Source: Planctomycetia bacterium
Lineage (GTDB): Bacteria; Planctomycetota; Planctomycetia; Gemmatales; Gemmataceae
DNA length: 46,125 bases
Direction: 5' to 3'
NCBI GenBank assembly: GCA_031387445.1
Contig: JANNDF010000418.1
Location: 1 to 46,125, forward strand
The notes beneath the pieces are model-generated. The model was not told the DNA's origin. It was given only the letters and a program-made list of their open reading frames with translations, and searched no databases. Shown here piece by piece: positions 18,811-37,112 of the stretch; position 1 is the first letter of the stretch, and each line of letters starts with the position of its first letter. The position numbers were made by a program, and so were the translations under genes.

Positions 18811-21800
18811 CAGCGTCTCGCCCGTTGCCGCTGTTTTGAACGGTGTAGGTGAAGGTGAGCGTCTGGCCGGCCTCGGCCGGGCCGGCCGGCACCACCGCCG
18901 TCACCCGCAGGTCGGCCGGGCGGGAGGCCACCGCCACCGTGCCCGCGCTGCGGCGGACGTTGTTCGCCTCGTCCGACTCGAACACCTGCGCGGTCGAGTC
19001 GGCGACGACGTATACGTAGTAGTTGCCTGTGGGCAGGTCGGCCGGCAGAGTGAAGATGACGCCCGGATCGACGGCCGACCCGTCGGACGCCGACACGCCC
19101 CGCGGCTCGGCGTTCCCACGGGTTCCCAGCAGCCGGGCCGCCGCGGGGTCGAAGGTGGGGGAGGTGGACAGGTAGAAGGCGTCCGTCCAGCCGGCGTTCG
19201 GCACCTCGCCAGCGCCGAGGTTCTGTGCCGCGTACCGCAGGGCGATCGGCTGCCCGGCCACGGCCGTCGGCGGCACCGTCAGGGCGGTCACTTCCAGGTC
19301 GGGCGGCGGGGTGAGCAGGATGGCGGTCGGGTCGTCGTGGCCGACGTTGTTCCCCTCGAAGGCCTGTTCGAACACCTGGTTCAGCGTGTCGGTGCGCACC
19401 AGCAGGAAGAACGCCCCCTGGGTGGTGACGGGCGTGACCACCGACAGGGACGCGGTGTACGTACCGTCGGCCGCGAGCGCCCCGCCGCGGGCCACCCGCC
19501 CGAGGCTCCAGTCGGAGGGGTCCACCCGGTCGTCGGCCGACAGGAACACTTCGTCGTACCAGCCGGTCGCGTCGGTCGGCCCGCGGCCGGCGTTCGTCAC
19601 GGTCCACGTGAGGGCGGTCGGCTGACCGGAGAAGGTGCTGCTCGGGGCGACCACGCTCGTCACCCGCAGGTCGGGCGGCGGGGTGAGGGTGACGGTGAAG
19701 CCGGCGCTGGCCGTGCGGTTGTTCGCGTCGCGGTTCAGCTCGAACACCTGCCCGTGCCGGTCCGCCTCGACGAGGATGTAGTAGGTGCCCTCGGCGTCGC
19801 GGGGCAGGCGGGCCGTCAGCCCGCTGTTGTACCCCTCGCCGGGCGGCAGGTAGGCCGGGTTCGCCACGTCCCCCAGGAAGGTGTCGGAGTTGTCGAGGAC
19901 GGCGTCGGCCGACAGCCACACGCGGTCGTACCAGACGGGCGAACTGGTCGCCCCACTGCCGGCGTTCGTCACCGTCCAGGTGGCCGACACCTCCTGCCCG
20001 CTGAACGCCTGCGGCGGCACTCCCACCGTCGTCACCTTCAGGTCCGGGTACTCCTGCTGGCCGAACTGCGTCTTGCGGGCGGTCAGGCGGGTGTTGTTCG
20101 TGTTATCCTGCTCGGCGAGTGCGTTGCCCACGTCCGCCGCTACCAGCAGGTAGAAGCCGCCGACCAGATCGATCGGGGCGTTCACCGCCTGGGTGCGGGT
20201 GACCGACTCGCCGGCGGCGATGGTGCCGGTGAAGGCGAAGTCGCTCAGGTGTCGCACGTTCACCCCGAATCGGTCCTTGGACGAGTACACGCGGTCGGTC
20301 CAGGTGCCGGTGGCGTCGGCCGAGCCGGTGTTGGTGACCGTCCAGGTGAGGGTGAACGGGTCGCCGCTGCGGGCGGCCGGCGGGGCGTCGATGGCCGACA
20401 CCACCAGATCCGGCCCACGGAGGGAGACGGGCAGCGCGCGGGTGTTGTTCGCCTCGCTCCGCTCGGCCTGCGCGCCGCTCCGGTCGGTCACGAACAGCAC
20501 GTAGTTCACGTCACCGGTCGCCGCCGGCACGGTGGCCGTGCGGGTGACGGTGTAGCTGGCCCCGCCGGTCAGCGGCGTCTGCGCGGCGATCGGCTCGCTC
20601 AGCACCAGCCGGTCGGACGAGTCCAGTGTGTCGTCCGCCGACAGGTAAACCGAGTCCGTCCAGTCGGCCGCCGCCGGGTCGGTGGCGGTGTTCGACACCG
20701 TCCAGGTGAACTCGGCCGGGCTGCCGACGGCCAGCACGGGCGGGGCGGTGGCCGTCGTCAGTTCCAGGTCGGGCGCGCCGATGGTCAGGGCGACCGACCG
20801 GCGGTTGTCGCCCTCGTTCGTCTCCCCCTGCTGGCTGGTGAAGTAGAAGTAGTACGACTGGTACCCGGCGTCGGTGAGCAGCGTCAGGTGCTTGGTGCCG
20901 GTCACGCCCGTGGGGATGGTGACAGTCTTGGTGACGGTGTAGCTGGCCCCCGCCGCGAGCGGCGTCTGTGCCGTTACGCCCTCGGTGGCGATCGGTTGGC
21001 CGTTGTAGTAGTAGCTGAGAGTCTGGTCGGGCGAGTCGAGCAGCAACAGGGCGTCGGCCCAGTCGGCCACGGCCGGGGTGGTGCCGGCGTTCGTCACCGT
21101 CCAGCTGACGGTGATCGTCTGGCCGGGGGTGACGGCCGTGGACGACGCGGTCAGGGCCGTCACGGTCAGGTTGGCCGAGCCGACGGTGGTGGCGACGGTG
21201 GCGGTGTTGTTGTTCTCGTCCGACTCCCCCTGGTAGGCGTTGACGTCCACGCTCAGGCGGAAGGTGGCGGCGCCGCCGGCGAAGTTGGCCGGCACCATCA
21301 CCTCGGCGGTGGCCGTGTACCCGGTCCCGGCCGCCAGTGGGCTGACGGTGCGGGCGCGGGTGGCCAGGCGGGTGCCGTTCAGGTCGATGGCGTCCGACCA
21401 GTCGCCCAGCGCCGGGTGTTGGCCGGCGTTCGTCACCTCCCAACTGACGGTGTACGTCTGCCCGGCGGCCACTGTGGTCGGGGCGGTGAAGGAGACGATT
21501 TTCAAGTCCGGCGGGGTGATGGTGAGCGTGCGGGTGCGGGCGTCGTTGCCCGTGTCGCCGTCGGCGAACCGCGGTTGGGCCGCCGTCCCGTTCCCGTTGT
21601 TCACCCGAAGGGTGACGGACGCCCCGCCGTAGTAGTAGCCGGTGCCGAACGCCGGCGAGGTGGTCACCTGGCGGGTGACGGTGTAGCTGGCACCGGGGGC
21701 GAGGGCCGGGCCGGTGTACGCCACGGCGGCGAGTTCGGACGTGCTGTAGTAGTACGAGTTGCTGAACTCGGTGAGCCGGTCCAGCCACCCGCCGGCCGGG

Positions 21801-24800
21801 GCCGCCGCATCGCCCACGTTCTTCACCGTCCAGGTGGCCGTGACGGTGCTGCCCGGCACGGCCGACGTCGGGAATGTGAAGTCCGTGACCACCAGGTCCG
21901 GGGCGTGGACGGTGACGGGCACCACCCGCGCGTTGTTCGTCTCGTCCGATTCGGTGAGAGTGCCGTTCGCGTCGGCCGTGTAGATGAGGAAGTAGCGGCC
22001 CGGCCGTAGCCCCGGCACGGTAACGGTCTGACTGGCCGTGTACGACCCGCCGGCCGTGGTGATGCCCGAGCGGTAGAACTCCGCGAGTTCCGCGTCCCCG
22101 CCGTCGAAGGTGGCGTCGAGCGACAGGTACACCGCGTCGTACCTGTCGCCCGGCGCGGCCACCGCCGACGAGTTGGACACCGTCCAGGAGAAGTCGGCTG
22201 ACTGGCCGGCGGTCAACTCCGCCGGCCAGTCGGCGACGGCCACCGTCAGGTCGGGCACGCCGACGGTGAACGGGATGGCGCGGGTGTTGTTCGCCTCGTT
22301 CGTCTCCGCCTGGGAGCCAGTGTCACCCTCGTAGTAGGAGTAGTAGTACCCGTCCGTTCGCACGATGAGGAAGCCGGCTCCGGCGGTCAGGGTGGACGGC
22401 AGGGTGAACGCCTGCGTGCGGGAGTACGCTTCGCCCAGATCGAGCGGGGTTTCCGCGCCGGCGTAGAACTGACCGAGGTTCACGTCGGACGAGTCGAGCG
22501 TTGCATCGGTCGAGAAGTACACCGTGTCGTACCAGTCGGCCAGCGCCGCATCCTCGCCGGCGTTCCGCACCGCCCACGTCACCTCCACCGACTGACCCAC
22601 CGCCCCGGCCGACGCCGAAGCCGTGGCCGAGTCCACCACCAGATCCGCACCCGTCACGGTGATGGCCACCGCCCGCGTGTTGTTCCCGGTGTCCGCCTCG
22701 GGCAGGTTGTAGGTGGGGTTGGTCGAGTAGCGGTTGGCCACCACCAGTAGGTACTTCGTGCCGCCGGTGCCGGACGGGATGCTGACCGTCCCTGTGCGGT
22801 TGACCGACGCCCCGGCCGCCAGCCCGTTCCCGGAGGCGTACCCGACGTACTCGTCGGTCGGGTCGAAGGTGGTGTCGTCCGACAGGTAGACGCTGTCGTA
22901 CAGCGTGCCGGTGACCGCCGTCCCGTCGTTCGCTATCGTCCACGAGACGGTGATGCTCTCGCCGGTCCGCACGGTCGTCTTGCTGGCGGTGGCGGCCGTC
23001 GGGCGGAAGTCGGGCAAGCCGGCGGCGGTGAGCCGCACCGCCGCCACGTTGTTCACCTCGTCCGACTCTTCGACGTAGGACGAGTAACTGCTGTAGTTGT
23101 TGCCGTCGGTGATGAAGAGCAGGTAGCCTCCGGCGATCGTCCGGCCCGCCAGGCTGACGTCCCCGCCGGTGGTGTACGACTCGCCGGCCGCCAGCGCCCC
23201 GTACCGCGAGAAGCCGCCCAGGTACGTGTCGTTCGAGTCGAGCACGGCGTCGGCGGACAGGTACACCAGGTCGGACCAACTGGACCGCGACGCCGACACT
23301 GGCCCGGCGTTCCGCACCGACGCCGTCACCTTCACCAGCCCTTGGGTCGAGGGGACGACCGACACGGTGGGGATCAGGTCCGGGGCGGTGAGGGTGACCG
23401 CCGCCGAGGCCGTGTTGTCGGCCGGGTTCGGGTCGTCGGCCGGGGTGCGGGCGTTCGCCACTACGAACACGTAGCGGTACTGATTCGGGTTGTACGGGGC
23501 GTACACCTCGGCGCTCGCCGAATACGTGCCGTCCGCCCGCACGTCGCTCGCCGAGATCAACTTCGTCCCCGCCAGCAAGTCGGTCGCGGTGTTCAGGGTG
23601 GCGTCGGCCGACAAGTAGACGCGGTCTTCCCACTTGCCGCCGGCGGCCGGGGTTGGGGTGGCGCGGACCGTCCAGGTGGCGGTGGAATAGCCGGCGACGG
23701 ACAACCCGTTCGGCAGCGACACCGCCGTGGCCGTCAGGTTCACCCCCGCGCCGGGGGTGAGCGGGGCGACGGTGACGGCGGCGACGGCGGTGTTGTTGTT
23801 GCTGTCCGACTCGGCGAAGTAGTACGGGGTGACGGACGCGATCAGGTAGCCCGCCCCGAGCGTGGTGGACCGCGACAATTCCGTTGCCAGCGTCACCGAC
23901 CTGGAGGTGCCCGGCTCCCACGCGGTGCCGCCGGCCGACGCGTACTGGTACGCGAGGTAGGTGTCGTCGTCGTCCAGTACGGCGTCGGCGGACAGGGCGA
24001 GGTAGACGTAGACGTACCCGGACTCGTACTCGTCGGACGGCACCGCCGCCGCCCCGGCGTTGGTGACGACGACGGTGGCGGACAGCGTGTCGCCGGGGAA
24101 GACGCGGGCCGGGGTGCCGGTGAGGGCGACCGTCAGGTCGGGCTGAGGGCCGGCGGGCGGCGGCGGGACCGGCGTGGGCGGTGGGGAGGTCGGCAGGGCG
24201 GTGACGGTGAGGGCGGTAGAGGCAGCGTTGTCGGCCGCGTTCCCGTCCGCCCGCCCCGCCCCCACCGTCACCCCGTAGTAGTACGTGCCGCCGGTCAGGT
24301 TCGTCGGCAGGGTGAGGGTGGCGGTGCGTGTGACGCTCCCGTTCACCGGCAGGCGGGCGTCCGTGCCGAGCGACACGCCGGTCGAAGCCACGCGGTTCGC
24401 CCCGGCCGCGTCTTTCGCCACCCACGCCACCGCGCTCACGCCGGTGGCGTCGTACACCGGCGTCGTCCCGGCATTCGACACCACGAAGGAGATGTCCACC
24501 GACTGGCCGGCGGTGGCCGCCGCCGGCCCGGTCAGCCCGCCCACCCGCAGGTCGGGCGTGCGGATGCGGAAGGGGATGGCGGCGGTGTTGTTGTCGGTGC
24601 GGGTCTCGGCGTACTGGGTGGAGTAGTAGGAGTACCGCTCCGCCCGCACGATCAGGAAGTAGTCGCCGGCGGCGGCGGCGGTGGGGGCGGCGGTGACGGC
24701 GGTCTGCGGCACCGACCCGCCGGCCGCCAGGTTCGACCCCGAACCGCCGGTCCTGACGAGCGTGTCGGCCGTGTCGTAGGTGGCGTCGGCCGACAGGTAC

Positions 24801-25402
24801 ACGTTTGACTGCCACGTCTGCGTGTACGCCGCCGCCCCCACGTTCGACACCACCCACGACAGGTCGATCGGCTGCCCGGCGTCGGCCGACGCCGGCCCGG
24901 TGAACCCGCTCACCGTCAGGTCGGGGGTGGCGAGCACGAGGGGCAGCACGCGGGTGTTGTTCGCCTCATTCCCCTCGGTGATTCGTTCGGACAGGTCGGT
25001 CACCACGAGCAGATACCCGGCCGAGGTCGGCACGTTCAGCGGCACCGCCTTCGACCGCGTGTACGTCGCCCCGGCCGGCAGTGCCGCCGCGTCCAGGATC
25101 GTCTCGGTGTGCAACAGTTGGTCGGTGCGGTCGAAGGTGGCGTCGGCCGAGAAGTAGAGGGAGTCGGACCAGCCGAGCGGGGGCGAGGCGGTGTCGCCGG
25201 CGTTGGTGCCCGCCCAGGTGATTGTCACCGTCTGCCCGACCACGAGCGGCCCGGTCACGGACAGTTCAGTCGGCCGCAGATCGACCGCCGGGGCGAGCCG
25301 GTCTTCCAACTGCGTGACGCCGAGCAACTGGCGGGGGCGGCGACCCCCCGTCGTGGATTGGGGCAGCCACGAGCGCAGAACGCGACCAAGAAGCGGGTGC
25401 AT
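18068..25402 (-). CDS. N-terminal part of the giant protein: leader with LEDRLAP motif plus about 17 tandem CARDB-type repeats. Only 25402 down to about 18825 is genuinely coding in this frame.
   Basis: MHPLLGRVLRSWLPQSTTGGRRPRQLLGVTQLEDRLAPA, then a repeating PDL.V......P......G......W.V.N.G...A...W.D.VYLSAD..LD..D unit. After ...TFTYTVQNSGNG the frame decays into RGRGRRRRRDRPGHPRARR... low-complexity text until the stop at 18068. Confidence 0.85.
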   Translation of the reverse strand: MHPLLGRVLRSWLPQSTTGGRRPRQLLGVTQLEDRLAPAVDLRPTELSVTGPLVVGQTVTITWAGTNAGDTASPPLGWSDSLYFSADATFDRTDQLLHTETILDAAALPAGATYTRSKAVPLNVPTSAGYLLVVTDLSERITEGNEANNTRVLPLVLATPDLTVSGFTGPASADAGQPIDLSWVVSNVGAAAYTQTWQSNVYLSADATYDTADTLVRTGGSGSNLAAGGSVPQTAVTAAPTAAAAGDYFLIVRAERYSYYSTQYAETRTDNNTAAIPFRIRTPDLRVGGLTGPAAATAGQSVDISFVVSNAGTTPVYDATGVSAVAWVAKDAAGANRVASTGVSLGTDARLPVNGSVTRTATLTLPTNLTGGTYYYGVTVGAGRADGNAADNAASTALTVTALPTSPPPTPVPPPPAGPQPDLTVALTGTPARVFPGDTLSATVVVTNAGAAAVPSDEYESGYVYVYLALSADAVLDDDDTYLAYQYASAGGTAWEPGTSRSVTLATELSRSTTLGAGYLIASVTPYYFAESDSNNNTAVAAVTVAPLTPGAGVNLTATAVSLPNGLSVAGYSTATWTVRATPTPAAGGKWEDRVYLSADATLNTATDLLAGTKLISASDVRADGTYSASAEVYAPYNPNQYRYVFVVANARTPADDPNPADNTASAAVTLTAPDLIPTVSVVPSTQGLVKVTASVRNAGPVSASRSSWSDLVYLSADAVLDSNDTYLGGFSRYGALAAGESYTTGGDVSLAGRTIAGGYLLFITDGNNYSSYSSYVEESDEVNNVAAVRLTAAGLPDFRPTAATASKTTVRTGESITVSWTIANDGTAVTGTLYDSVYLSDDTTFDPTDEYVGYASGNGLAAGASVNRTGTVSIPSGTGGTKYLLVVANRYSTNPTYNLPEADTGNNTRAVAITVTGADLVVDSATASASAGAVGQSVEVTWAVRNAGEDAALADWYDTVYFSTDATLDSSDVNLGQFYAGAETPLDLGEAYSRTQAFTLPSTLTAGAGFLIVRTDGYYYSYYEGDTGSQAETNEANNTRAIPFTVGVPDLTVAVADWPAELTAGQSADFSWTVSNSSAVAAPGDRYDAVYLSLDATFDGGDAELAEFYRSGITTAGGSYTASQTVTVPGLRPGRYFLIYTADANGTLTESDETNNARVVPVTVHAPDLVVTDFTFPTSAVPGSTVTATWTVKNVGDAAAPAGGWLDRLTEFSNSYYYSTSELAAVAYTGPALAPGASYTVTRQVTTSPAFGTGYYYGGASVTLRVNNGNGTAAQPRFADGDTGNDARTRTLTITPPDLKIVSFTAPTTVAAGQTYTVSWEVTNAGQHPALGDWSDAIDLNGTRLATRARTVSPLAAGTGYTATAEVMVPANFAGGAATFRLSVDVNAYQGESDENNNTATVATTVGSANLTVTALTASSTAVTPGQTITVSWTVTNAGTTPAVADWADALLLLDSPDQTLSYYYNGQPIATEGVTAQTPLAAGASYTVTKTVTIPTGVTGTKHLTLLTDAGYQSYYFYFTSQQGETNEGDNRRSVALTIGAPDLELTTATAPPVLAVGSPAEFTWTVSNTATDPAAADWTDSVYLSADDTLDSSDRLVLSEPIAAQTPLTGGASYTVTRTATVPAATGDVNYVLFVTDRSGAQAERSEANNTRALPVSLRGPDLVVSAIDAPPAARSGDPFTLTWTVTNTGSADATGTWTDRVYSSKDRFGVNVRHLSDFAFTGTIAAGESVTRTQAVNAPIDLVGGFYLLVAADVGNALAEQDNTNNTRLTARKTQFGQQEYPDLKVTTVGVPPQAFSGQEVSATWTVTNAGSGATSSPVWYDRVWLSADAVLDNSDTFLGDVANPAYLPPGEGYNSGLTARLPRDAEGTYYILVEADRHGQVFELNRDANNRTASAGFTVTLTPPPDLRVTSVVAPSSTFSGQPTALTWTVTNAGRGPTDATGWYDEVFLSADDRVDPSDWSLGRVARGGALAADGTYTASLSVVTPVTTQGAFFLLVRTDTLNQVFEQAFEGNNVGHDDPTAILLTPPPDLEVTALTVPPTAVAGQPIALRYAAQNLGAGEVPNAGWTDAFYLSTSPTFDPAAARLLGTRGNAEPRGVSASDGSAVDPGVIFTLPADLPTGNYYVYVVADSTAQVFESDEANNVRRSAGTVAVASRPADLRVTAVVPAGPAEAGQTLTFTYTVQNSGNGRDAGERVDGSVRGRGRRRRRDRPGHPRARRHPGGRGDVHRDRDRRRAVHPGRRLHAQRPHRHRQRGVRVGRRKQCRHRPDHCHPPCARPDRLGRVRHRPGRGRRHPDRLLAGDEQRRRCHPGPVLVRPGGADQQCRRRGGRVGHLPPHQPTVGRGVVLAKRVVHRAGQPGAGHVLRPRDDGRPGAGDGADRGREQQRPVADGRGRHRRPAPVPRPAGDGRVRPDDGRGRPAVHCHVDGAERRPDCHRPVV

Positions 25403-25455
25403 GGGCGAAACCCCGCGGGTTGTGGTAGGACCAAATATCTACTGTGGGGCGGATA

Positions 25456-26100: not shown

Positions 26101-26730
26101 TCACCCGAGCAGCGTCCCGGCGGTCCGCCGGACCTCTTGCAGGTAGCTCGTCAGCCCGTCCCGGAACGTCACCTCGGTGGCGTCTAGGCCCCAGCCGAGC
26201 CACAGGGTCAGCCCGCAGTCGCACTCGCGGCCGTCGATCAGTTTCTGCCGGACGGCGTCGAACCCGAACCGGTCGAGGACTCGGGCGAGCACCTGCTCGA
26301 AGCAGAACACCCGGCCGGCAAGGGATCGGCAGAGGGCGGCGCACGTCGCGACCTCCGAGCCGGCGGCGGCAAGACCGGCCAGGCTCTTCTTGTCGCCGGT
26401 GACGATGACCGAGTCGGGCACGAGCGGGCAGAGGGCGAACAGGACCGCCTCACCGGCGTCGATGTTCTTGCCCGTCTGCTCGGTCAGGGCGGCGACGGCC
26501 GCAGGGTCGGGGTCGGCGTCGACGTCGGCCACGGCCGCCAGGAACGCGGTGAGGCGGGCGAAGCTGGCGTCGCCGACCCGCTTGCGGTGCTTGGGGGTGG
26601 TGACGGAGAAGCGGGCGGTCCGGAGCACCCGGAGGTCGGCGGCGGTGACGGCGAACGCGGCCAGGAACTTGTCGAACAGGTCACAGCGGGCGAGTTTGAG
26701 GAGGATGTCGTTGTCGGCCAGGACGATCAC
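26101..26730 (-). CDS. PIN-like nuclease-domain protein (putative)
   Basis: N-terminal MIVLADNDILLKLARCDL (beta1 plus acidic residues), then NIDAGEAVLFALC and VIVTGDKKSLAGLAA, which resemble the PIN acidic quartet. The start overlaps the upstream ImmA gene stop by 4 nt. Confidence 0.55.
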   Translation of the reverse strand: MIVLADNDILLKLARCDLFDKFLAAFAVTAADLRVLRTARFSVTTPKHRKRVGDASFARLTAFLAAVADVDADPDPAAVAALTEQTGKNIDAGEAVLFALCPLVPDSVIVTGDKKSLAGLAAAGSEVATCAALCRSLAGRVFCFEQVLARVLDRFGFDAVRQKLIDGRECDCGLTLWLGWGLDATEVTFRDGLTSYLQEVRRTAGTLLG

Positions 26731-27746
26731 CCGGGGGCCTCCTGCCGGGTGATCCGCATGAGGAACTCGCTGCTATCCTCGGGCAGTTTCTCCCAGTCCA
26801 GGTTGGCGGCCAGCCGCTCGCCGACCATCCCAACCGCGTCGGCGTCCGGGTCCAGGAGCTTGAGCGCCGCGTTCGCCACCGCCCAGAACCCGCCGCCCTC
26901 GGTGTGGGCGCAGTTCAAGACGACGTGGCCGGGGTCCACCCGGTTCCGCCGGCCGAACTCGCGGGCGAGCTGGGCCAGCCGGTCCGCCTTCAGCCAGCGG
27001 CCCACCTCGAAGCAGGTGGCGGCGTTGCCGGTGAGCAGCTCGATGGCGTACCGGTCGGCCTGCTCCTCCTCCGCGTCCTGCACGTTTTCGTGCATCGTCT
27101 CGTCGAGCAGCGCCCCGTTGTCCGGCACGTGCCCGTGGTGCAGGTGGCCGAGCTCGTGGGCCAGGATGAAGAGCAGCCAGGCGGGCTGGCTCTTGTCCAC
27201 GCACAGGACGACCGCCGGCCGGCCGTTCACCCGCAGGGTGAAACCCATCGGCTTCTTCTTCGCGTCCGCCGGGAAGTTGTTGACGTGCAGCACCGGGATG
27301 CCGGTCGCCCAGCAGTGGTCGAGCAACGGCTCGAACCCGATCCACGGGGCGGCTTCGAGGATCGCCCCGCGGAGGGCGGACGCCGGCGGGACGGGCAGGT
27401 ACGGGCGGTCCATCGCGGCGGCGGCCAACTGGGCGGCGCGGGTGGCGATGACGCGGGTGAGGAGCAACTCGTCGTCGGTGGTGCCGGACTGTTTCTTGTA
27501 CTTGCACACCCCGAAGTCCTGTAGCCGCAGGGTGGCGGCCGGGTCCTGGAGTGTGGTGATGTCGATGCCGAGGTGCCGCGACAGGTGCATCAGCCCGACG
27601 GCCCGGCTGGCCGCGTCGTCCCAGAGGGCGTCGTCCCACCACGACGGGAGCGCGGCCACCTTGCGGACGTAGGGCTTGGTGAACCCCACCTCACGGAGTC
27701 GGTCGTACACGGTCTTCGCTGAAATGGCGGTCAGGATGGCGGTCAC
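26727..27746 (-). CDS. ImmA/IrrE-family (COG2856, M78-like) zinc metallopeptidase domain protein
   Basis: HEXXH in LFILAHELGHLHHGH, followed by EEEQADRYAIELLTG (third-ligand / E..AN.FA..LL motif). 339 aa, with no fused XRE HTH. Confidence 0.8.
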   Translation of the reverse strand: MTAILTAISAKTVYDRLREVGFTKPYVRKVAALPSWWDDALWDDAASRAVGLMHLSRHLGIDITTLQDPAATLRLQDFGVCKYKKQSGTTDDELLLTRVIATRAAQLAAAAMDRPYLPVPPASALRGAILEAAPWIGFEPLLDHCWATGIPVLHVNNFPADAKKKPMGFTLRVNGRPAVVLCVDKSQPAWLLFILAHELGHLHHGHVPDNGALLDETMHENVQDAEEEQADRYAIELLTGNAATCFEVGRWLKADRLAQLAREFGRRNRVDPGHVVLNCAHTEGGGFWAVANAALKLLDPDADAVGMVGERLAANLDWEKLPEDSSEFLMRITRQEAPG

Positions 27747-28250: not shown

Positions 28251-29072
28251 ATGGTCGACAACGACAACTGGATTGACTGCCCGTGGGACGCTGGCGAGGT
28301 CCGCCTGCTCGTCCGCGGACTGGCGAAGTGCCTGATCCAGGCGCGGTGGCTCAACGATCCCGACTTCCTACGGGCCGACCAGGTGAACGCCTGGTTTAAG
28401 CCGGACGGGGCGGAACTCAGGGGCACCGACCGGTCCGCTCAGACTCTGCTGGGGCATGCGGCGACGAACGCCCGCCGGCTCCAGGCAGCCGGCTTCCTGC
28501 CCGCCACCTGGCACACCAGCGCCACCCTCGTACCCGGTCTGGCTGTGGCCGGGGAACTGGCCTCGGTCGTGCACGGACTGCTGTCCGGCGACGTGGAGGA
28601 CGACAACCCGGTCGCCGCGCTGACGGAAGCCGCTCGACGACCCGTGCCGCCGGCGAATTGGGTGTGGGTGATCGATTGGGACGTGTTGCAGCAACTGCTC
28701 CCGCTGCTCGACCAACTCCCCAAGCCGAAGCCCCGCCCGCCGGCGGTAGTTCCTCACTGGGACAAGGACGCCGGGGTGCTGAAGTACGGTCGGTGGGTGG
28801 CCCGCTGGGTGGCCGCCGGGGCGACGAACCTCCGCACGCTGCTCGACGCGTTCGATGCCGAAGGGTGGCCGCACAAAATCCCGTCGCCATTCCCCGGGAA
28901 TGTGTCGGCGGCCAAGGACACGCTGGCCCGGCTGAACGACGGGATGAAGCACATCCGCTTCGGCTCGGCGCGTGGCGGGACGGAGGTGTCCTGGGCATCA
29001 CTGGTCAAGAAGGCACGAACTCCCAAGCAGAACGCGAAGAGTTCGTCGAAAAGAAGAACGCCCGGCCGCTGA
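28251..29072 (+). CDS. Hypothetical protein (273 aa), basic C-terminal tail
   Basis: Clean ORF with coding-like codon bias, divergent from the ImmA operon. The C-terminal part (LRTLLDAFDAEGWPHKIPSPFPG...AKDTLARLNDGMKHIRFGSARGGTEVSW) resembles an uncharacterised planctomycete family I associate with mobile elements. Confidence 0.6.
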   Translation: MVDNDNWIDCPWDAGEVRLLVRGLAKCLIQARWLNDPDFLRADQVNAWFKPDGAELRGTDRSAQTLLGHAATNARRLQAAGFLPATWHTSATLVPGLAVAGELASVVHGLLSGDVEDDNPVAALTEAARRPVPPANWVWVIDWDVLQQLLPLLDQLPKPKPRPPAVVPHWDKDAGVLKYGRWVARWVAAGATNLRTLLDAFDAEGWPHKIPSPFPGNVSAAKDTLARLNDGMKHIRFGSARGGTEVSWASLVKKARTPKQNAKSSSKRRTPGR

Positions 29073-29751: not shown

Positions 29752-30243
29752 ATGAACCCGTTGCTCTATCGCGGCGCCCGCACCCGCCAGGCCGAGTTAC
29801 ACCGGCAGTTCGGCCTCCACCCGGCCGGCGACCCGCTGCTCGCCACGTCGTTCGACGCCGTACTGCATGTCGAGCGGTTCGACGAGCTGCCGGCCGAACT
29901 GCTCAACCGACTGCACACGATCGAGCACTTCGACGACCCGAGGACCCTGCGGATCGTTCGGCGGCGGGTCCCCCTGTGGGTGCGGAAGGATGGCGGTTAC
30001 GAGGTGCCGAACCGCCTGGTGCCACTCATCCAGCAGTACTTCTGCAGCTCGGCCCGACGATCCGAAGGGCCGGCGGTCGAAGTGAATACCGACGCCTACC
30101 CGGCCATTGCCGATCCGCTCGTCCCGGCCGCCCTGGACGCGTACGGGCGGGCGGTGGTGAAGTACGCTGTCGGAGTCACTTTATCGCCAACATTCGCCGT
30201 TTCCCCCGTGCTCGATGGCGGGGGCGGATTGAAACATCGGTGA
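29752..30243 (+). CDS. Hypothetical protein (163 aa); the 3' end runs into CRISPR repeat 1
   Basis: ORF with coding-like bias. Its last 15 codons are encoded by the CRISPR repeat and spacer, so the true C-terminus or the reality of the gene is uncertain. Confidence 0.4.
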   Translation: MNPLLYRGARTRQAELHRQFGLHPAGDPLLATSFDAVLHVERFDELPAELLNRLHTIEHFDDPRTLRIVRRRVPLWVRKDGGYEVPNRLVPLIQQYFCSSARRSEGPAVEVNTDAYPAIADPLVPAALDAYGRAVVKYAVGVTLSPTFAVSPVLDGGGGLKHR

Positions 30244-30308
30244 GATTGAGGGCGCGGTGGCCGCTCAGGTCGTTTCCCCCGTGCTCGATGGCGGGGGCGG
30301 ATTGAATC
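30199..30308 (+). CRISPR. Solitary CRISPR mini-array: two 37-nt repeats, one 36-nt spacer
   Basis: Repeat 1 is 30199-30235, GTTTCCCCCGTGCTCGATGGCGGGGGCGGATTGAAAC. The spacer is 30236-30271, ATCGGTGAGATTGAGGGCGCGGTGGCCGCTCAGGTC. Repeat 2 is 30272-30308, identical except position 36 (...GATTGAATC). Internal CCCCCG/CGGGGG stem and an ATTGAAAC 3' tag. Confidence 0.7.
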
Positions 30309-30628
30309 GGCGTTGACGGGCGTCAACAATCGAGGACCGCCGCACGGCGTTGGAGTCACCGCAATCAGACGTGACACCCTTCCACCCAACCACGCCTCAC
30401 CCCCGCAACTCGCAGCAAGGTGGCGCTCCGGGCAGTGGCTCTGTCTTCGCCCAATGAGCGGGCGGGGCATTGGCCGCATGTTCATGCGGGCGGTCTTTGG
30501 GGTTGCTCGGGCTTCTCTTCACCGGGCCGTCGTCAGTGCCCCGGCCGAACATTTCGGTTTAACTCCGCGGCCCCCCCTGGTACTAGTGGGGGTGGGGCAG
30601 TCCGCGCGCACCGCACCGGGGGTTGAGA

Positions 30629-33600
30629 ATGGGGTTGATCCGCTTGGCGTTGAACAACACCTACGGGGTGATCGTCCTCGCCCTGTTCATCTGCATCCTC
30701 GGCTCGGTGGCTATTGTGTCCATCCCGGTGGACATCCTGCCGGCGTTCAAGACGCCGGCGGTGCAGGTGCTGACGTATTACAACGGCATGCCGGCGCGGA
30801 GCATCGAGCGGACCATCACCGACCGGGTGGAGCGGTGGGTAAACCAGTCGGCCGGGGTGCAGTCGGTCGAGTCGCGGTCGGTCGCCGGGGTGAGCGTGGT
30901 GAAGCTCTACTTCCAGGACGACGTGGACCCCAACTCGGCACTCACGCAAACCAACTCGCTCACCGGCGCGGCCATGCCGTACCTGCCGACGAACACCCTC
31001 CCGCCCGTCACCACCCCGTTCGACCCGACGGGCACCCTGCCGGTGGGCATCCTCACCGTGTCGCGGCCGGGGGAGAAAGAGCAGGTGGTGAAAGACCTGG
31101 CGCGGGTGGAGGTGCGGAACCGGTTGGGCGGGGTGCGGGGGTGCGTCGCCCCGGTGGTGGTGGGCGGGAAGGACCGGCGGGTGATGGTCTACCTGGACCG
31201 GCAGAAGCTGGAGGCGATGAAGTTGTCGCCGGTGGACGTGGTGCGGGCGCTCGACCAGGGCAACTTCATGGCCTCGCCGGGGGTGGCGTACATCGGCGAC
31301 AGTCAGATCGCCCTCGACACGAACGCGATGACGCGGACGGTGCAGGACATCAACGACCTGCCGCTGGTGTTCGACGGCGACCGGCACATCCTGCTGAGCG
31401 ACGTGGCCACCGCCCAGGACGACGCGGTGATTCAGAAGTCGCGGGTGCGGGTGAACGGCAAGCCGCAGGTGTACGTGCCCATCTACCGCCAGCAGGGGGC
31501 GAGCACACTGGCAGTGGCCGACGGGGTGCGGGCGATCATCCCGGACATCGAGGCCGAACTGAACGCCGACACCGGCGACGGGGAGAAGAAGGAGCCGGTG
31601 AAGCTGGACTTCGTCATTGACCAGACGGACTACGTGCGGGTGGCCATCGAGAGCCTCGTTCACGAAGGCATCGTCGGGGCCATCCTGGTGTCGATCATGA
31701 TCCTCCTCTTCCTGGGCGACTGGAAGATGACGGTCATCGCCACCCTCGCCCTGCCGCTTTCCATCCTGGGGGCGATCATCGGCCTGAAGGCGACCGGGAA
31801 CAGCATCAACGTGATGACCCTGGGCGGGCTGTTCCTGGCCATCGGCCCGCTCGTGGACAACGCCATTGTGGTGCTGGAGAACATCGAGCGGCACCTGCGG
31901 ATGGGCAAGTCGCCGTTTCAGGCGGCGCTCGACGGCACCGCCGAGCTCACCCTGCCGGTGGTGGTGGCCACCCTCGCCCTCATCATCGTGCTCTGCCCGG
32001 TCGCCCTCACGCCGGGCGTCGGCGGGTTCCTGTTCAAGCCGCTCACGCTGGCGGTCGGCTTCGCCATGATCTTCTCGCTGGTGCTGAGCTTCACGTTCGT
32101 GCCCGCCCTCTGCTCGAAGATGCTCAAGCCGCACGGCCACGGGCACGCCGGCCACTCGCCGGGCGTGTTCGCCCGCGCCTACGGGCGGATCGACGGCGGG
32201 CTGAAGTGGGTCACCGGGCGGTACGCGGCGATGCTGGAGTGGGCGCTCGGCCGGCGGTTCCGGGTGCTCGGCGGCATCGGCCTGCTGTTCGTCAGCTCGC
32301 TCTTCCTGCTCCGGTTCATCGGCCAGGAGTACTTCCCGCAGGTGGACGCCGGGCAGATCTCCCTCCAGGTGCGGGCACCGTCGCACTTGCGGTTGGACGC
32401 CACCGAGCGGCTGATCGCGGACGTGGAGAAGGAACTGCTACTCGCCCCCGACCACCCGGAGAAAGGTGGCATTCCGGGCGATGAGTTGACAACGGTCGTC
32501 TCCGAGATCGGGCTGAACAACGACTGGAGCGCCGCGTATTCGGCGAACGCCGGCCAGCAGGACACCGTCATCCGCCTGCAACTCACCCCGGAGCGGAAGA
32601 AGTCCGCCCAGCAGTACGCCGTCGAACTCCGGAAGAAGTTGACCGCCGACCCGCGGTTCGCCGACCTGGAGTTCAGCTTCGACACCGGCGGGATGGTGTC
32701 GGCGGCGCTCAACTTCGGGGCCAGTTCGCCCATCGACTTGCAAATCACCGGCGGCACCCCGGACCAGAAGTTTGCAGCCGCCCGGAAGGTGAAAGAGGCG
32801 GTGCGGGGGGTGCCCGGTGCGGCCGACGTGCGGGTGCTTCAGCGGAACGACGCGCCCTATCTGGTACTGGACGTGAACCGCGACAAGGCGGCGAGCGTCG
32901 GCCTGTCCGCCCGCGACGTGGTGATGCAAGTGGTGACGGCGATGAACAGCAGCATCGCCCTCACCCGCAACTTCTGGATCGACCCGAAGAGCGGCAACCA
33001 GTACTTCATCGCCGTCCAGTACCCCGACGACCCGAACTTCCTGCTGTCCGACCTGTCCAGCATCATTGCCACCGGCACAAGCCAAAAGGAACCCGTGCGG
33101 CTCAGTTCGCTCGTCACCATCCGCGACACCACGCAGGCGGTGGAGTTCAACCACGTCGGGTTGAAGCGGATCGTGGACGTGCTGGTGAACACCGAGAACC
33201 GCGACATCGGCAGCGTGGCGGCCGACATCGACCGGGCCGTCGCCCCGATCCGGGCCGATCTGCCGCCGGGGGTGAAGATCGAGATGAAGGGGGAGTACGC
33301 CCGCATGACCGAGTCGGCGCAGAGCCTGGGCGTCGGGCTGGCGCTGGCCGCCGTGCTGGTGTACCTACTGATGGTGCCGCTCATGCGGTCGTTCGTCCAG
33401 CCGCTCATCATCCTGGCGGCGGTTCCGCTCGGCCTGATCGGGGTGCTGGGCATCTTGTGGGCCACCCGCACCAGCCTGAACGTGCAGTCCGAGATGGGGG
33501 TGATCTTCCTGGTCGGCATCGTGGTGTCGCAAGGGGTGCTGCTCATCGACTTCGCCAACCATCTGCGGAAGCACGGCAAGCGAGTGCGGGCGGCCGTGAC

Positions 33601-33886
33601 CGAAGCCGCGACGACCCGCTTCCGCCCGATCCTGATGACCTTCCTGGCCACGTTCCTCGACCTGTTGCCGATGGCACTGGGGTTGGGCCGCGGGAGCGAA
33701 TCGCTCACCCCGCTCGCCCGTGCCGTCGTCGGCGGGTTGGTCACGGCGACCGCCTTGACGCTGTTTGTGGTGCCCATCCTGTTCACCCTGCTCATCCGCG
33801 ATCAGCCCGCCACCGACGCCCCGCCTGCCGACGATGTGCCGCCGTCCACCGACCACGACCCCGTTCCGCTCACCCCGGCCGTGTGA
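30629..33886 (+). CDS. RND efflux transporter permease (AcrB/HAE-like)
   Basis: MGLIRLALNNTYGVIVLALFICILGSVAIVSIPVDILPAFKTPAVQV..., 12-TM/two-loop RND architecture, about 1,085 aa. The ORF track starts at TTG 30623; the ATG at 30629 is more likely. Confidence 0.9.
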   Translation: MGLIRLALNNTYGVIVLALFICILGSVAIVSIPVDILPAFKTPAVQVLTYYNGMPARSIERTITDRVERWVNQSAGVQSVESRSVAGVSVVKLYFQDDVDPNSALTQTNSLTGAAMPYLPTNTLPPVTTPFDPTGTLPVGILTVSRPGEKEQVVKDLARVEVRNRLGGVRGCVAPVVVGGKDRRVMVYLDRQKLEAMKLSPVDVVRALDQGNFMASPGVAYIGDSQIALDTNAMTRTVQDINDLPLVFDGDRHILLSDVATAQDDAVIQKSRVRVNGKPQVYVPIYRQQGASTLAVADGVRAIIPDIEAELNADTGDGEKKEPVKLDFVIDQTDYVRVAIESLVHEGIVGAILVSIMILLFLGDWKMTVIATLALPLSILGAIIGLKATGNSINVMTLGGLFLAIGPLVDNAIVVLENIERHLRMGKSPFQAALDGTAELTLPVVVATLALIIVLCPVALTPGVGGFLFKPLTLAVGFAMIFSLVLSFTFVPALCSKMLKPHGHGHAGHSPGVFARAYGRIDGGLKWVTGRYAAMLEWALGRRFRVLGGIGLLFVSSLFLLRFIGQEYFPQVDAGQISLQVRAPSHLRLDATERLIADVEKELLLAPDHPEKGGIPGDELTTVVSEIGLNNDWSAAYSANAGQQDTVIRLQLTPERKKSAQQYAVELRKKLTADPRFADLEFSFDTGGMVSAALNFGASSPIDLQITGGTPDQKFAAARKVKEAVRGVPGAADVRVLQRNDAPYLVLDVNRDKAASVGLSARDVVMQVVTAMNSSIALTRNFWIDPKSGNQYFIAVQYPDDPNFLLSDLSSIIATGTSQKEPVRLSSLVTIRDTTQAVEFNHVGLKRIVDVLVNTENRDIGSVAADIDRAVAPIRADLPPGVKIEMKGEYARMTESAQSLGVGLALAAVLVYLLMVPLMRSFVQPLIILAAVPLGLIGVLGILWATRTSLNVQSEMGVIFLVGIVVSQGVLLIDFANHLRKHGKRVRAAVTEAATTRFRPILMTFLATFLDLLPMALGLGRGSESLTPLARAVVGGLVTATALTLFVVPILFTLLIRDQPATDAPPADDVPPSTDHDPVPLTPAV

Positions 33887-33908
33887 CCTTCCCCGGAGAC
33901 TGCCCCCA

Positions 33909-35525
33909 ATGACTGTCCCCCACGCCCACTCGGACGCGCACGCCCACGCCCGGCCGAACGCCCACCACCATCACCACCACCACCCACACACCGACCCCCG
34001 GCCGCTGCGGAAGAAATGGCGGTGGCGGTGGGTGATCGCACTCGCCCTGGCCGTCGTCGTCGGCGCGGGTGTCGTGGCCGGGGTGGTCGCCGGTGTTATC
34101 CCGTCGCCGTTCGAGCACCCGACCAAGCACGCCCAAGCTGCTCACGGCGGTTCGTCGGGCGAGTTGACGGCAAAGGTGATCCGCCCGAAGGCGGCGGCGA
34201 GCGTGCCCATCACCGTCGATCAGTTGGCGGTGGTCGAGCCGTACTACCGGGCCGACCTGCGGGCGCGTGCGAGCGGACTGGTAAAGGCCGTCCGCCACGA
34301 CATCGGCGATCAGGTGAAGCAGGGGGAGGTGCTGGTGGAGATCGACGTGCCGGAGTTGGTGCAAGACGTGGCCCGCGGGGAGGCGATGATCGTGCAGCGG
34401 GAGAAGGAGTTGAAGGTGTCGGAGGCGAAGCTGAAGGACGCGAACGCGGCGGTGAAGGTGTCGGCCGCCACCATCAAGCAGCGGGAGGCGGACGTACTGG
34501 CCGTCAGCGCCACCCGCGACCTGAAGAAGCGGCGGTTCGAGCGGTTCGCGGCGCTCGCCAAGAAGGGGGACGTGGTGGGCAGCGTGGTGGAAGAGGAAGA
34601 GCGTGACTACCTGGCGAGCGAGGCGGCGGTGACGGCGGCGAACGCGAACGTGGAACGCGCCCGTGCCGATTTTGCCGAGTCTGAGTCAAAGGTGGAGGGG
34701 GCGGAGGCCGATATTGACCTCAAGAAAGCGCTCATCGACGGCGCTCGTACGGATTTGGACAAGGCGAAGGCGGTGGCCGACTACGCCCGAGTGGTCGCCC
34801 CGTTCGACGGGGTGGTGGTCCGCCGCGGCGTCGATCCGGGGTCGTTCGTGCAGAACGCCACCACGGGGAACAGTGAGGTGCTGATCTCCCTGGCCCGCGT
34901 CGATGTGGTGACAATCGCCGCCCGCTTCCCCGACGCTTTCGCCTCGCTGGTGGCGGCCGACACGCCGGCTGAGGTGCGGGTGGACGGACTGTCAGGCGTC
35001 ACCATCCCCGCAGTCGTCACCCGGTTCGCGCCGAGCGTGCAGAACGCCGACCGCACCATGCGGGTGGAAGTGGATCTCTTCAACGGCGACGACGCCGGCT
35101 ACCAGCGAATGTCCACCGCCGGCAAGTTGAGCAACCCGAAGGGGGCGTCCGACCCGCTGCCGGCGCGGGCGTTCGCCGCCGGGCACACGGCCGGCAAACT
35201 GCTCCCCGGCATGACCGGCACCATGCGGCTAAGGGTCGGCGGATACGGCCAGTCGTTCGTACTGCCCTCCACCGCCGTGTACTCCCGGAGCGGCACCAGT
35301 TACCTGCTTCTGGTGGAGGACGGCAAGACGAAGCAGGTGCCGGTGAAAGTGCAGGTGAACGACGGGAAGACGGTGCGGGTGGCGGTGGTGAAGAAGCAGA
35401 CCGCCGCGGACGGCAGCACCCGTGAGACGCTGACCGAGTTGACCGGCGCGGAGCAGGTGGTGGCCGCCCGCCAACTGGAGATCGGCGACGGGACGACCGT
35501 GGGTGTCGCACCGGGCGAGTGGTGA
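33909..35525 (+). CDS. RND periplasmic adaptor (HlyD/MFP family) with a His-rich N-terminal tail
   Basis: ATG at 33909: MTVPHAHSDAHAHARPNAHHHHHHHPHTDPRPLRKKWRWRW, then a TM segment, a lipoyl/coiled-coil region (VKQGEVLVEIDVPEL...) and beta-barrel domains. Confidence 0.85.
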   Translation: MTVPHAHSDAHAHARPNAHHHHHHHPHTDPRPLRKKWRWRWVIALALAVVVGAGVVAGVVAGVIPSPFEHPTKHAQAAHGGSSGELTAKVIRPKAAASVPITVDQLAVVEPYYRADLRARASGLVKAVRHDIGDQVKQGEVLVEIDVPELVQDVARGEAMIVQREKELKVSEAKLKDANAAVKVSAATIKQREADVLAVSATRDLKKRRFERFAALAKKGDVVGSVVEEEERDYLASEAAVTAANANVERARADFAESESKVEGAEADIDLKKALIDGARTDLDKAKAVADYARVVAPFDGVVVRRGVDPGSFVQNATTGNSEVLISLARVDVVTIAARFPDAFASLVAADTPAEVRVDGLSGVTIPAVVTRFAPSVQNADRTMRVEVDLFNGDDAGYQRMSTAGKLSNPKGASDPLPARAFAAGHTAGKLLPGMTGTMRLRVGGYGQSFVLPSTAVYSRSGTSYLLLVEDGKTKQVPVKVQVNDGKTVRVAVVKKQTAADGSTRETLTELTGAEQVVAARQLEIGDGTTVGVAPGEW

Positions 35526-35552
35526 TGTTTCCCCAGGGCACGGAGGCCCGGA

Positions 35553-37112
35553 ATGTCGAACCGATTGATCCGCCGGCTCGTTTGGTTGCCGGCCGTCGGG
35601 CTGACCGTGGCCGGGTGCGCGACCACATCCCCCGAGATCGACCCCGCCGCCTCACCGTCCCGCTGGTACTCGCCCACCAACCTGCCCGTCGCCGCCAAGC
35701 CCGTCGTCAGAACGCCCGCCCCGAAGACCGCTGCGGACGCCCCCCTGACGCTGGCGTCCGCGGTCGAACCGCCGGTCCCGTCCGCCGTGCCCCCGACGAC
35801 ATCACCGCTCCGTCCGGCTTACGCCCAAGTCGAGACGCACCCCATCGATCTCGCCACGGTGTTACGGCTGGTGTCCCCGAACAGCCCGACCGTCGGGCTG
35901 GCCCGCGCGCGGGTGGCTGAGGCCGAGGCACGGGTGCAACGGGCGGAAGTGCAATGGTTGCCCAACCTCTCCTTCGGCACCGCCTACAACCGCTTCGACG
36001 GGCAGACGCAGAACCAGGCCGGGAACGTGTTCGGGGTGTCGCGGGCGAACCTGTTCTACGGCGGCGGACCGACCCTCACCCTTGATCTGGCGGAGGCGCT
36101 GTACGGCCCGCTCGTCGCCCGCCGGGTACGGGCGGCGGCGCAGTTCACGGAGGTGGCCACCACCATCACCGCCGAGCAGGAGGCCGCCGCCGCCTACCTC
36201 GACCTGGTGCAACTGTACGCCCTGCGGGAGATCACCGCCGAGACGCTGTCGCGGGCCGAAGAGATGTTGAAGGCGGCCGAGAGTGCGAAGGACGCGAAAC
36301 TCGACCGCACCGCCGGCGACGTGCAACGGGCGAGGACGGAGGTGCTGTTCCGCCGCACCGAGCGACTCGACCTTGAAGCCCGCGCCTCCGCCATCAGCGC
36401 CCGCCTCGGCCGGATGCTCTTCCTTCAGCCCAACGTGAAGCTGGTACCGGCCGACCTCGCCGTCGCCCCGATCACCCTCGTCGACCCGTCCCGCACCCTC
36501 GACGACCTGCTCGCGACCGCCCTGGAAACCCGCCCCGACCTCGCCGCCGGGCGGGAGGCCATCGCCGCGGCGTGGGCGCGGGTGAAGCAGGCCCAGCGGG
36601 AGCCGTTCATCCCGAAGGTGTCGGTGCAGAATCAGATGGGGAGCTTCGGCGGCGGGCTGAACGACGACCTCGCCGACTTCGGTGCCCGCAACGCCCTGAG
36701 CGTGCAACTGTTCTGGGAAGTGCGGAACCTGGGGTTCGGCAACCGGGCGGGGGTGGCCGAGCGGCGGGCCGCGGCGGATCAGGTCCGCTACCAACTGGCC
36801 GAAGCTCAGGCCCGTGCCGCCGCCGAGGTGGTGGAAGCCGCCCAGACCGCCGCCGCCAAGTTCGAGGCCATCGCCCCGGCGGAAGAGGCGGTGAAGGAGG
36901 CGACCGAGTTGTACCGCATCAACAAGTCGGGCACACAGAACGTGGTCGGGGCGAACAACCTGTTCGACGCCCTCCGCCCGCTGCAAGCGATCCAGGCGCT
37001 GAACACCGCCCGTCAGAACTACCTGGGGGCGATCATGGACCACAACCGCGCCCAACTCCGCCTGCTCGCCGCCACCGGAACACCACCGGCTGTTACCGCC
37101 GGCGTCAAATGA
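35553..37112 (+). CDS. Outer-membrane efflux lipoprotein (TolC/NodT family)
   Basis: MSNRLIRRLVWLPAVGLTVAGC lipobox, then two OEP repeats with long helical segments. Third gene of the RND operon. Confidence 0.85.
   Translation: MSNRLIRRLVWLPAVGLTVAGCATTSPEIDPAASPSRWYSPTNLPVAAKPVVRTPAPKTAADAPLTLASAVEPPVPSAVPPTTSPLRPAYAQVETHPIDLATVLRLVSPNSPTVGLARARVAEAEARVQRAEVQWLPNLSFGTAYNRFDGQTQNQAGNVFGVSRANLFYGGGPTLTLDLAEALYGPLVARRVRAAAQFTEVATTITAEQEAAAAYLDLVQLYALREITAETLSRAEEMLKAAESAKDAKLDRTAGDVQRARTEVLFRRTERLDLEARASAISARLGRMLFLQPNVKLVPADLAVAPITLVDPSRTLDDLLATALETRPDLAAGREAIAAAWARVKQAQREPFIPKVSVQNQMGSFGGGLNDDLADFGARNALSVQLFWEVRNLGFGNRAGVAERRAAADQVRYQLAEAQARAAAEVVEAAQTAAAKFEAIAPAEEAVKEATELYRINKSGTQNVVGANNLFDALRPLQAIQALNTARQNYLGAIMDHNRAQLRLLAATGTPPAVTAGVK

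Follow-up and report, generated by a model that had tools for sequence, protein, structure and literature searches.

Faure et al. reportedly described, in 2019, CRISPR mini-arrays carried by viruses and other mobile elements. Both such mini-arrays and orphan arrays lying far from genes for CRISPR-associated (Cas) proteins are established (Medvedeva et al. 2019, PMC6858448; PMC9071438; PMC7145637). In type I-C systems, the nuclease Cas5c cleaves at the 3' base of the repeat hairpin and leaves an 11-nucleotide (nt) 5' handle (bioRxiv 10.1101/2024.12.27.630466; PMC10651486), and the typical type I-C repeat has 32 nt, with a 3' handle of 21 nt (10.1101/2024.12.27.630466). Racr RNA anti-CRISPRs are recognized as solitary repeat units with no second repeat within ~100 bp (PMC10651486). 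Here we describe a small CRISPR unit in contig JANNDF010000418.1 from a bacterium of the Gemmataceae. The window analyzed is the entire contig, 46,125 nt, and the absence of cas genes reported below is therefore contig-wide only. Sequencing runs SRR20217212 and SRR20217215 contain DNA of 99.99-100% identity. The unit is a genuine CRISPR repeat-spacer-repeat, and by sequence comparison we identify it as an orphan, leaderless, one-spacer piece of a planctomycete (Gemmatales-type) type I-C array. We consider it moderately probable that this stub lies at a rearrangement junction of a degraded integrative element and is a relic, at most residually functional. The stub and the gene that runs into it consist of the following features, given in window positions.

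29752-30243, + strand: orf163, a truncated gene; by homology, codons 1 to ~145 correspond to the N-terminal part of proteins of a ~465-aa family
30199-30235, + strand: CRISPR repeat 1, 37 nt, GTTTCCCCCGTGCTCGATGGCGGGGGCGGATTGAAAC; the same as the type I-C array consensus of related planctomycetes and the predicted source of the 5' handle; covariance-model score 60 bits
30236-30271, + strand: unique spacer of 36 nt, ATCGGTGAGATTGAGGGCGCGGTGGCCGCTCAGGTC
30272-30308, + strand: CRISPR repeat 2, the distal copy, 37 nt, with the change A36T and ending ...GAATC; 51.7 bits

Like orphan arrays located far from cas genes, the stub has repeats identical to those of cas-linked arrays of its lineage, has no cas genes nearby and could function in trans only. 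It differs from them in having one spacer and no leader and in standing at the point where the neighboring gene is truncated, a position which marks it as a junction product and not a normal secondary array. With the mini-arrays of viruses and other mobile elements it shares the small number of spacers (one or two), the lack of cas genes, a neighborhood related to mobile elements and repeats that match a host-type system. In those mini-arrays, however, the carrier element is intact and the spacers have matches in related competing viruses, whereas the stub resides in what appears to be a degraded element, on a contig without an integrase, and no target of its spacer was found. Units of the type I-C CRISPR RNA-like RNA (crlRNA), CRISIS and CreTA kind also place one or two repeats and a spacer-like segment just 3' of non-cas genes, but the window holds no partial target near the cassette promoters, its repeats are not degenerate and no cas operon surrounds them. 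Racr RNAs resemble the stub as repeat mimics found beyond an array in a mobile-element setting. They differ in being solitary, whereas the stub is a repeat-spacer-repeat with two full repeats 36 nt apart, and the SRUFinder pipeline of PMC10651486 would set it aside as a mini-array.

As an isolated one-spacer fragment the stub adds little; orphan arrays and mini-arrays are well documented. Its value is in the assignment of a 37-nt planctomycete repeat family to type I-C and in offering a clean case of a CRISPR repeat at a gene-truncating junction in an apparently decayed integrative element. It also provides two leads which possibly outweigh the stub itself, namely a cassette of DUF1580, ~465-aa and reverse transcriptase genes and a set of solitary repeats placed before start codons.

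Reading of the sequence, a repeat finder and a pattern search allowing up to 3 mismatches all gave exactly two copies in the window, in agreement with a preliminary description made from the sequence, which had reported two 37-nt repeats with a one-base difference in the distal copy and a 36-nt spacer between them. The internal 6-bp stem noted there is also present (C5-G10/C21-G26), and so is the reported lack of cas genes: none was found in the 46-kb contig by a Pfam scan of every open reading frame (ORF) with a coding signature, several of which were additionally searched with PADLOC. The unit has the defining structure of a CRISPR array, at least two direct repeats around a unique spacer of canonical length, and its 36 nt fall within the 33-37 nt range of spacers in arrays with the identical repeat. 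The repeat pattern had no match in any of 100 dinucleotide shuffles. A covariance model of 28 repeat-family members, run with filters off, gave only 13 bits (E 0.17) for the next match in the window, and no third, degenerate repeat rose above background in either flank. Rfam yielded no match in the window at gathering thresholds; sub-threshold, full-length matches on the + strand were to CRISPR-DR9 only. The distal repeat is the degenerate copy, just as the repeats that end related arrays have degenerate 3' ends. Its first 26 nt, comprising the hairpin and the predicted 3' handle of the CRISPR RNA (crRNA), are intact, and A36T lies outside the predicted crRNA. A tandem duplication of one repeat together with its flank was considered and ruled out, since the spacer is unlike the sequence 3' of repeat 2.

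Relatives of the repeat were collected by a scan of one genome per species with the pattern CCCCCG-N8-12-CGGGGGCGGATTGAA, which returned at least 60 stretches. Among the matches listed, most are from Planctomycetota (Singulisphaera, Fimbriiglobus, Gemmataceae, Isosphaeraceae), and the long arrays of the family hold 40-108 copies with a periodicity of 69-77 nt. In Singulisphaera sp. Ch08 and GP187 (L054, L005), arrays follow cas8c, cas7 (Csd2), cas4 and cas1c, and in a metagenome-assembled genome (MAG) of Fimbriiglobus (L018) an array follows cas3, cas8c, cas7 and cas2. A repeat identical to that of the window forms arrays in L042 and L049 (MAG SOY_31_metabat_55), and occurs in L076-L078 and in arrays of JGI metagenome contigs. 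In L046 (MAG SOY_31_metabat_55), the first repeat, identical to the window repeat over its first 35 nt, comes directly after cas1c, cas2 and a leader. On the Logan contig L080, the identical repeat follows a complete cas3-cas5c-cas8c-cas7-cas4-cas1-cas2 operon and a leader. The window repeat is therefore one that is found in arrays physically linked to type I-C cas genes.

The hairpin of the repeat occupies positions 5-12 and 19-26 and is paired in 96% of cells across the family; its two inner pairs, which were not fixed by the search pattern, covary. The 11-nt tail CGGATTGAAAC is invariant in the family, in a scan whose pattern itself fixed 9 of the 11 positions. Hairpin and conserved 11-nt 3' tail together are the features of a Cas5c substrate. 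We assign the repeat family to type I-C. Since the family adjoins type I-C operons, the expected nuclease is Cas5c and the expected handle is 11 nt long (CGGAUUGAAAC), and this replaces the Cas6 processing with an 8-nt handle that had been proposed for the locus. Cas-adjacent arrays of the family run from the leader into GTTTCC...GAAAC, an orientation taken from L046, L078 and L080. This direction confirms the earlier suggestion that the + strand is the transcribed one, if any.

In comparison with known type I-C arrays, the hairpin is likewise followed by an 11-nt ...GGAUUGAAAC tail, and the same family adjoins the cas operon order given above for L080. The window repeat is different in its length of 37 nt, which makes the 3' handle 26 nt rather than 21 nt long. 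No analysis of planctomycete type I-C repeats was found in the literature searched. The close Cas1c homologues looked up in Logan were from other samples, and none of the scan stretches listed shares flank homology with the window. Type I-C Cas proteins in the source organism are plausible, because the repeat is native to Gemmatales-type I-C and the best named relatives of the efflux pump encoded downstream of the stub are Gemmatales.

The ORF at 29752-30243 continues across repeat 1 and ends 8 nt past it, inside the spacer; its last 15 codons are made up of the repeat and these 8 nt. Periodicity of GC at third codon positions continues to about 30160-30200 and then ends until the efflux operon. 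An exhaustive HMMER search gave homologues of 462-477 aa (P0242, 462 aa, 54%; P0244, 47%; P0245; P0247), all of which align solely to residues 1-145 of orf163, and DNA homology to the intact gene in L083 stops at 30166, 33 nt before repeat 1. Because the alignments are limited to these residues and the DNA homology ends there, orf163 is a gene cut at about one third of its length, and it is by accident that its frame extends into the repeat. The ~320 codons that are missing have left no trace anywhere in the window. The preliminary description had placed the array next to DUF1580/orphan genes and had this ORF reading straight into repeat 1. The reading into the repeat holds, and the orphan status, with which a word-indexed protein search agreed in finding no homologue, is withdrawn in view of the homologues from the exhaustive search. 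We also considered a target-site duplication. The 8-mer GGAGTCAC is present at 30172-30179, where it is part of the native sequence of the truncated gene and precedes repeat 1 by 19 nt, and again at 30352-30359, 43 nt after repeat 2. This candidate was rejected; the gene does not resume past the second copy, and for this reason the pair of 8-mers flanking the stub is probably due to chance.

Two genes of what we refer to as the cassette precede orf163, and codon-position GC identifies three real + strand genes upstream of the stub.

28251-29072, + strand: orf273, first gene of the cassette, 273 aa, no known domain; coding periodicity and 55% full-length identity to a 278-aa gene of L083
29397-29726, + strand: second gene of the cassette, a small helix-turn-helix protein with DUF1580 (Pfam, E 7e-9)

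Exact-protein look-ups with orf163, orf273 and the DUF1580 protein gave no match. An intact cassette was found in L083 (4975-9436) and L084, and consists of orf278, DUF1580, orf462, a 262-aa reverse transcriptase and orf237. In L083 it converges on a cas3 gene that is type I-G-like (cas3g, E 4.8e-136). The DUF1580 protein of the window is 68% identical to the copy of this intact cassette and 52% identical to an integrase-side copy in L080. The P0244 contig carries Phage_integrase, a 366-aa gene, HTH_17 and then a member of the ~465-aa family, and its HTH_17 (excisionase-type) gene is the positional equivalent of the DUF1580 gene. In L080 (1-1671), genes for an integrase, an unrelated 328-aa protein and a DUF1580 protein are located directly upstream of the type I-C operon and array. 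This module is co-directional with the operon, in the same order and orientation as the window cassette and the stub. Cassette genes or DUF1580 relatives were thus seen beside CRISPR-Cas loci in two contigs. Judged by these homologies, the window cassette is the 5' portion of a module of integrative elements, and this module tends to adjoin CRISPR-Cas loci. The mobile-element-like character of the neighborhood, suggested previously, is upheld by the homology of the upstream genes to an integrase-linked cassette and by an ImmA/IrrE gene pair, described below, that matches phage families. No integrase, att site or tRNA was found in the contig, and no mention of DUF1580 was found in the literature searched.

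Contig L080 also contains repeat-like sequences outside its array. In the gap between cas3 and cas5c (5460-5500, minus strand), a hairpin GCACAGA-ttt-TCTGTGC is joined to the exact 11-nt handle CGGATTGAAAC, beside a 70-aa ORF; in position and form this pseudo-repeat is like regulatory units of the type I-C crlRNA or CreA-like kind. At 2755-2805 on the minus strand, within the 1.5 kb of non-coding DNA that separates the DUF1580 gene from cas3, there are three handle-like units, GATTGAAAT, GATTGAAAC and GTTGAAAC, with a spacing of 16-17 nt.

The most likely origin of such a junction relic is a deletion or recombination event by which the cassette became joined to a CRISPR array at its trailer end, or to CRISPR cargo that the element carried. 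The leader, the remaining spacers and all intervening sequence would have been lost in this event. The co-directional order in L080 suggests how one deletion could give the arrangement of the window. Starting from the order cassette-(cas operon)-leader-array, a single deletion from inside the cassette into the distal array would yield a truncated gene, no leader, and the last spacer between the penultimate repeat and the degenerate terminal repeat. Read-through from the cassette would place the stub in the 3' end of an mRNA, and Cas5c acting in trans, from a type I-C system elsewhere, may cleave at the 3' base of each hairpin. The product would be one crRNA of 73 nt, CGGAUUGAAAC + 36-nt spacer + GUUUCCCCCGUGCUCGAUGGCGGGGG (3' end ...GGCGGGGG). 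The A36T change would be discarded with the portion outside the crRNA and leave the crRNA intact; with Cas proteins provided in trans, the stub could still yield a single intact crRNA. Since the leader is absent, no acquisition of new spacers would be expected.

Several observations weigh against a junction relic. The intact cassettes in L083 and L084 contain no CRISPR repeat. In L080 the first gene is a different one and the ~465-aa gene is missing, which makes this contig an analogue and not an ancestor of the window arrangement. No ancestral larger array or cas operon was seen at the junction site. Finally, measured against the consensus of live arrays both repeats are near-perfect, and the truncated ORF remains open with strong codon periodicity; hence the event was recent or the unit is kept by selection.

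The 150 nt upstream of the stub are the 3' end of the truncated gene and have no counterpart of a leader. They match neither of the two leader families of the related arrays, one found in L018, L046, L060, L035, L033, L051 and L078 (the last with the identical repeat) and the other in the Isosphaeraceae loci L007, L028, L030 and L056. The trailer of the stub is not similar to the trailers of other arrays of the family. No sigma-70-like promoter was predicted for the stub, and the sole terminator-like site of the region is at 30487-30509, 3' of the stub, with none between the cassette and the stub. In L028, L030 and L056, just one repeat stands between an Isosphaeraceae-type leader and an ordinary gene downstream; these spacer-free 'empty' arrays are conserved between two different MAG species.

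A search for targets of the spacer among phages, plasmids, proviruses and the host genome had been proposed as a check on the locus, and no target emerged from the contig and collections searched. BLAST against GenBank phages and PLSDB plasmids gave chance-level matches only (all E >=0.3), and neither strand of the window contains a self-targeting match of at least 23/36 nt. The spacer was not matched in any fetched locus, in IMG/VR with an exact 20-mer or an exact 21-mer, or in JGI metagenomes with a pattern of 25 specified bases that left each sixth position open; these collection scans needed exact matches at 20-25 specified bases, and diverged protospacers could be missed. At 5841-5876 of the window, in the part of a type II/IV secretion ATPase gene that encodes the Walker-B region (IGEMRD), there is a match to spacer positions 1-11 with position 6 left free. 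This site has a CTG protospacer adjacent motif (PAM) and not TTC, agrees at 21/36 positions overall and is the sole seed match in the contig, with ~0.09 expected by chance.

That an element borrows host Cas proteins for inter-element conflict, as the preliminary description imagined, is possible. In its specific form, the stub would be a mobile-element mini-array whose one guide attacks a competing element or excludes superinfection through the Cascade and Cas3 of a host type I-C system, and we regard this as unlikely. The cassette is homologous to integrase-linked modules, the stub is co-oriented with it with no predicted terminator between them, and cas-adjacent arrays of the lineage have identical repeats. 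The single crRNA would be fully intact, the mutated base being outside it. There are also precedents in viruses (PMC6858448) and, for CRISPR components, on plasmids (PMC9071438). However, the contig carries no integrase, att site or tRNA, and the gene beside the array is truncated, so that the element appears degraded; the truncation of the gene at the stub points towards a relic instead. In addition, intact copies of the cassette lack the repeat, the ~465-aa family is absent from IMG/VR, and phages, plasmids, IMG/VR and JGI metagenomes yielded no protospacer.

Another possibility, which we consider quite unlikely, is that the stub is a working part of an integrative-element family that recurs at Gemmatales type I CRISPR-Cas loci and either recombines at repeats or carries a single guide against rivals, used through a host type I-C Cascade. 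Such a family would be composed of an integrase, an unrelated gene that varies, a helix-turn-helix gene (DUF1580 or HTH_17), the ~465-aa protein and the reverse transcriptase. If this were true, solitary repeats before start codons would represent a second, non-immune use of Cas5c/Cascade recognition.

Ectopic spacer integration is very unlikely in our view. Here, Cas1-Cas2 would have inserted a spacer at a pre-existing solitary repeat and duplicated the repeat. Solitary units of the family are common in related genomes and phages, the spacer has the canonical length, the lack of a leader is expected for an off-site event, and near-identical repeats fit a recent duplication. This course of events, however, leaves unexplained the loss of two thirds of the adjacent gene at the same point. 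Moreover, nothing repeat-like is present at the matching position of intact homologues, and no orthologous locus carrying just one repeat was found.

It is highly improbable that the stub encodes a regulatory crRNA-like RNA of the CreTA or CRISIS crlRNA kind, which would guide Cascade to repress the cassette promoter through partial complementarity. The stub does lie directly 3' of a gene cassette, as type I-C crlRNA units do (10.1101/2024.12.27.630466), and the crlRNA-like pseudo-repeat between cas3 and cas5c in L080 is in line with such an RNA. Yet on both strands of the intergenic regions of the islet, no PAM-flanked partial match to the 18 spacer nt nearest the PAM rose above background, and the best sites had 5-6 mismatches in 15 scored positions, the same as random 500-nt windows. 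The islet contains no site that combines a seed match with a TTC or TTA PAM; the sole seed match of the contig is the one within the ATPase gene, with its CTG PAM. The repeats are canonical and not degenerate, and the locus is outside any cas operon, on a contig without cas genes. The last candidate, a chance or unrelated 37-nt duplication of non-CRISPR origin, might be thought of for two copies on a contig without cas genes, but its probability is negligible and we take it as refuted by the base-for-base identity of the repeat to long arrays and to an array adjacent to cas2 and a leader, by the result with the 100 shuffles and by the canonical spacer length.

Solitary copies of the repeat family were found in planctomycete genomes and in IMG/VR viral contigs, about 33 among the matches listed. 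Within this set, a start codon on the same strand follows within 60 nt 3' of 20 of the 33 units, mostly at 0-25 nt, compared to 7 in the opposite orientation. In orthologous pairs the solitary unit is kept at 35-37 of 37 positions, with the upstream flank down to 78% in one pair. The copies in viral contigs could be RNA anti-CRISPRs, and those in hosts could serve in Cas5c-dependent mRNA processing or as an element of the 5' untranslated region. Start-proximal copies are present in the genomic loci L008, L055, L010, L013, L014, L019, L025, L028, L030, L044, L050 and L053 and in the viral contigs L064, L069, L070, L071 and L072; the host genomes belong to Isosphaeraceae and Gemmatales, and the viruses are their phages. 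Genes found 3' of solitary copies include mnmA, pyrG, proS, a thioredoxin gene and a 708-aa gene, counted as housekeeping genes, and phage genes such as one that is small-terminase-like. Start codons in the window mostly have a C-rich 5' context (caccATG, ccccATG) without a Shine-Dalgarno-like motif, which is relevant to a possible effect of the A/U-rich ...AUUGAAAC tail before a start codon.

The wider neighborhood of the stub and cassette includes the following features.

26101-26730, - strand: partner gene of the peptidase gene, 209 aa; phrog_15597 over full length, E 1e-26; overlaps the peptidase gene by 4 nt
26727-27746, - strand: ImmA/IrrE (M78) metallopeptidase; Pfam Peptidase_M78; phrog_18577 over full length, E 1.6e-68
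30309-30628, no strand: unique non-coding stretch from the stub to the efflux operon; no codon periodicity
30629-37090, + strand: efflux operon for AcrB, membrane-fusion and outer-membrane proteins (Pfam); conserved block and right-hand limit of the variable islet

The ImmA/IrrE gene is divergent from the cassette and ~30% identical to plasmid ImmA/IrrE genes. An ImmA-PIN module had been named at this place, but no PIN domain was detected in the 209-aa partner with Pfam or phage protein families; in Pfam the partner has a weak, sub-threshold match to TetR_C_15 only. The non-coding stretch 3' of the stub features a hairpin, GTTGACgggcGTCAAC (30313-30328), in addition to the terminator-like site at 30487-30509, and is not similar to the trailers of related arrays or to the relatives of the efflux operon. 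At 30570-30598, ~30 nt 5' of the acrB start at 30629, there is a C-run/G-run hairpin, CCCCCCCTGGTACTAGTGGGGGTGGGG, like the repeat hairpin in general style and without the GGATTGAAAC tail. The efflux operon has 83-86% DNA identity to L073, L074 and L075, beginning within 11 nt of 30629. Its upstream flank is different in each of these three relatives, which share only the part from 30629 on, and therefore synteny cannot define the borders of the islet.

Further from the islet, a small S-adenosylmethionine-dependent methyltransferase gene at 39288-39806 matches PADLOC mad2 (E 2e-15), and no other defence parts were seen nearby. Two adjacent surface-protein genes on the minus strand, at 9580-18900 and 18068-25438, encode giant proteins of ~3100 and 2450 aa. 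They contain many CARDB and carboxypeptidase-regulatory-like repeats, an S8 subtilase domain, a dockerin and strong internal DNA repeats.

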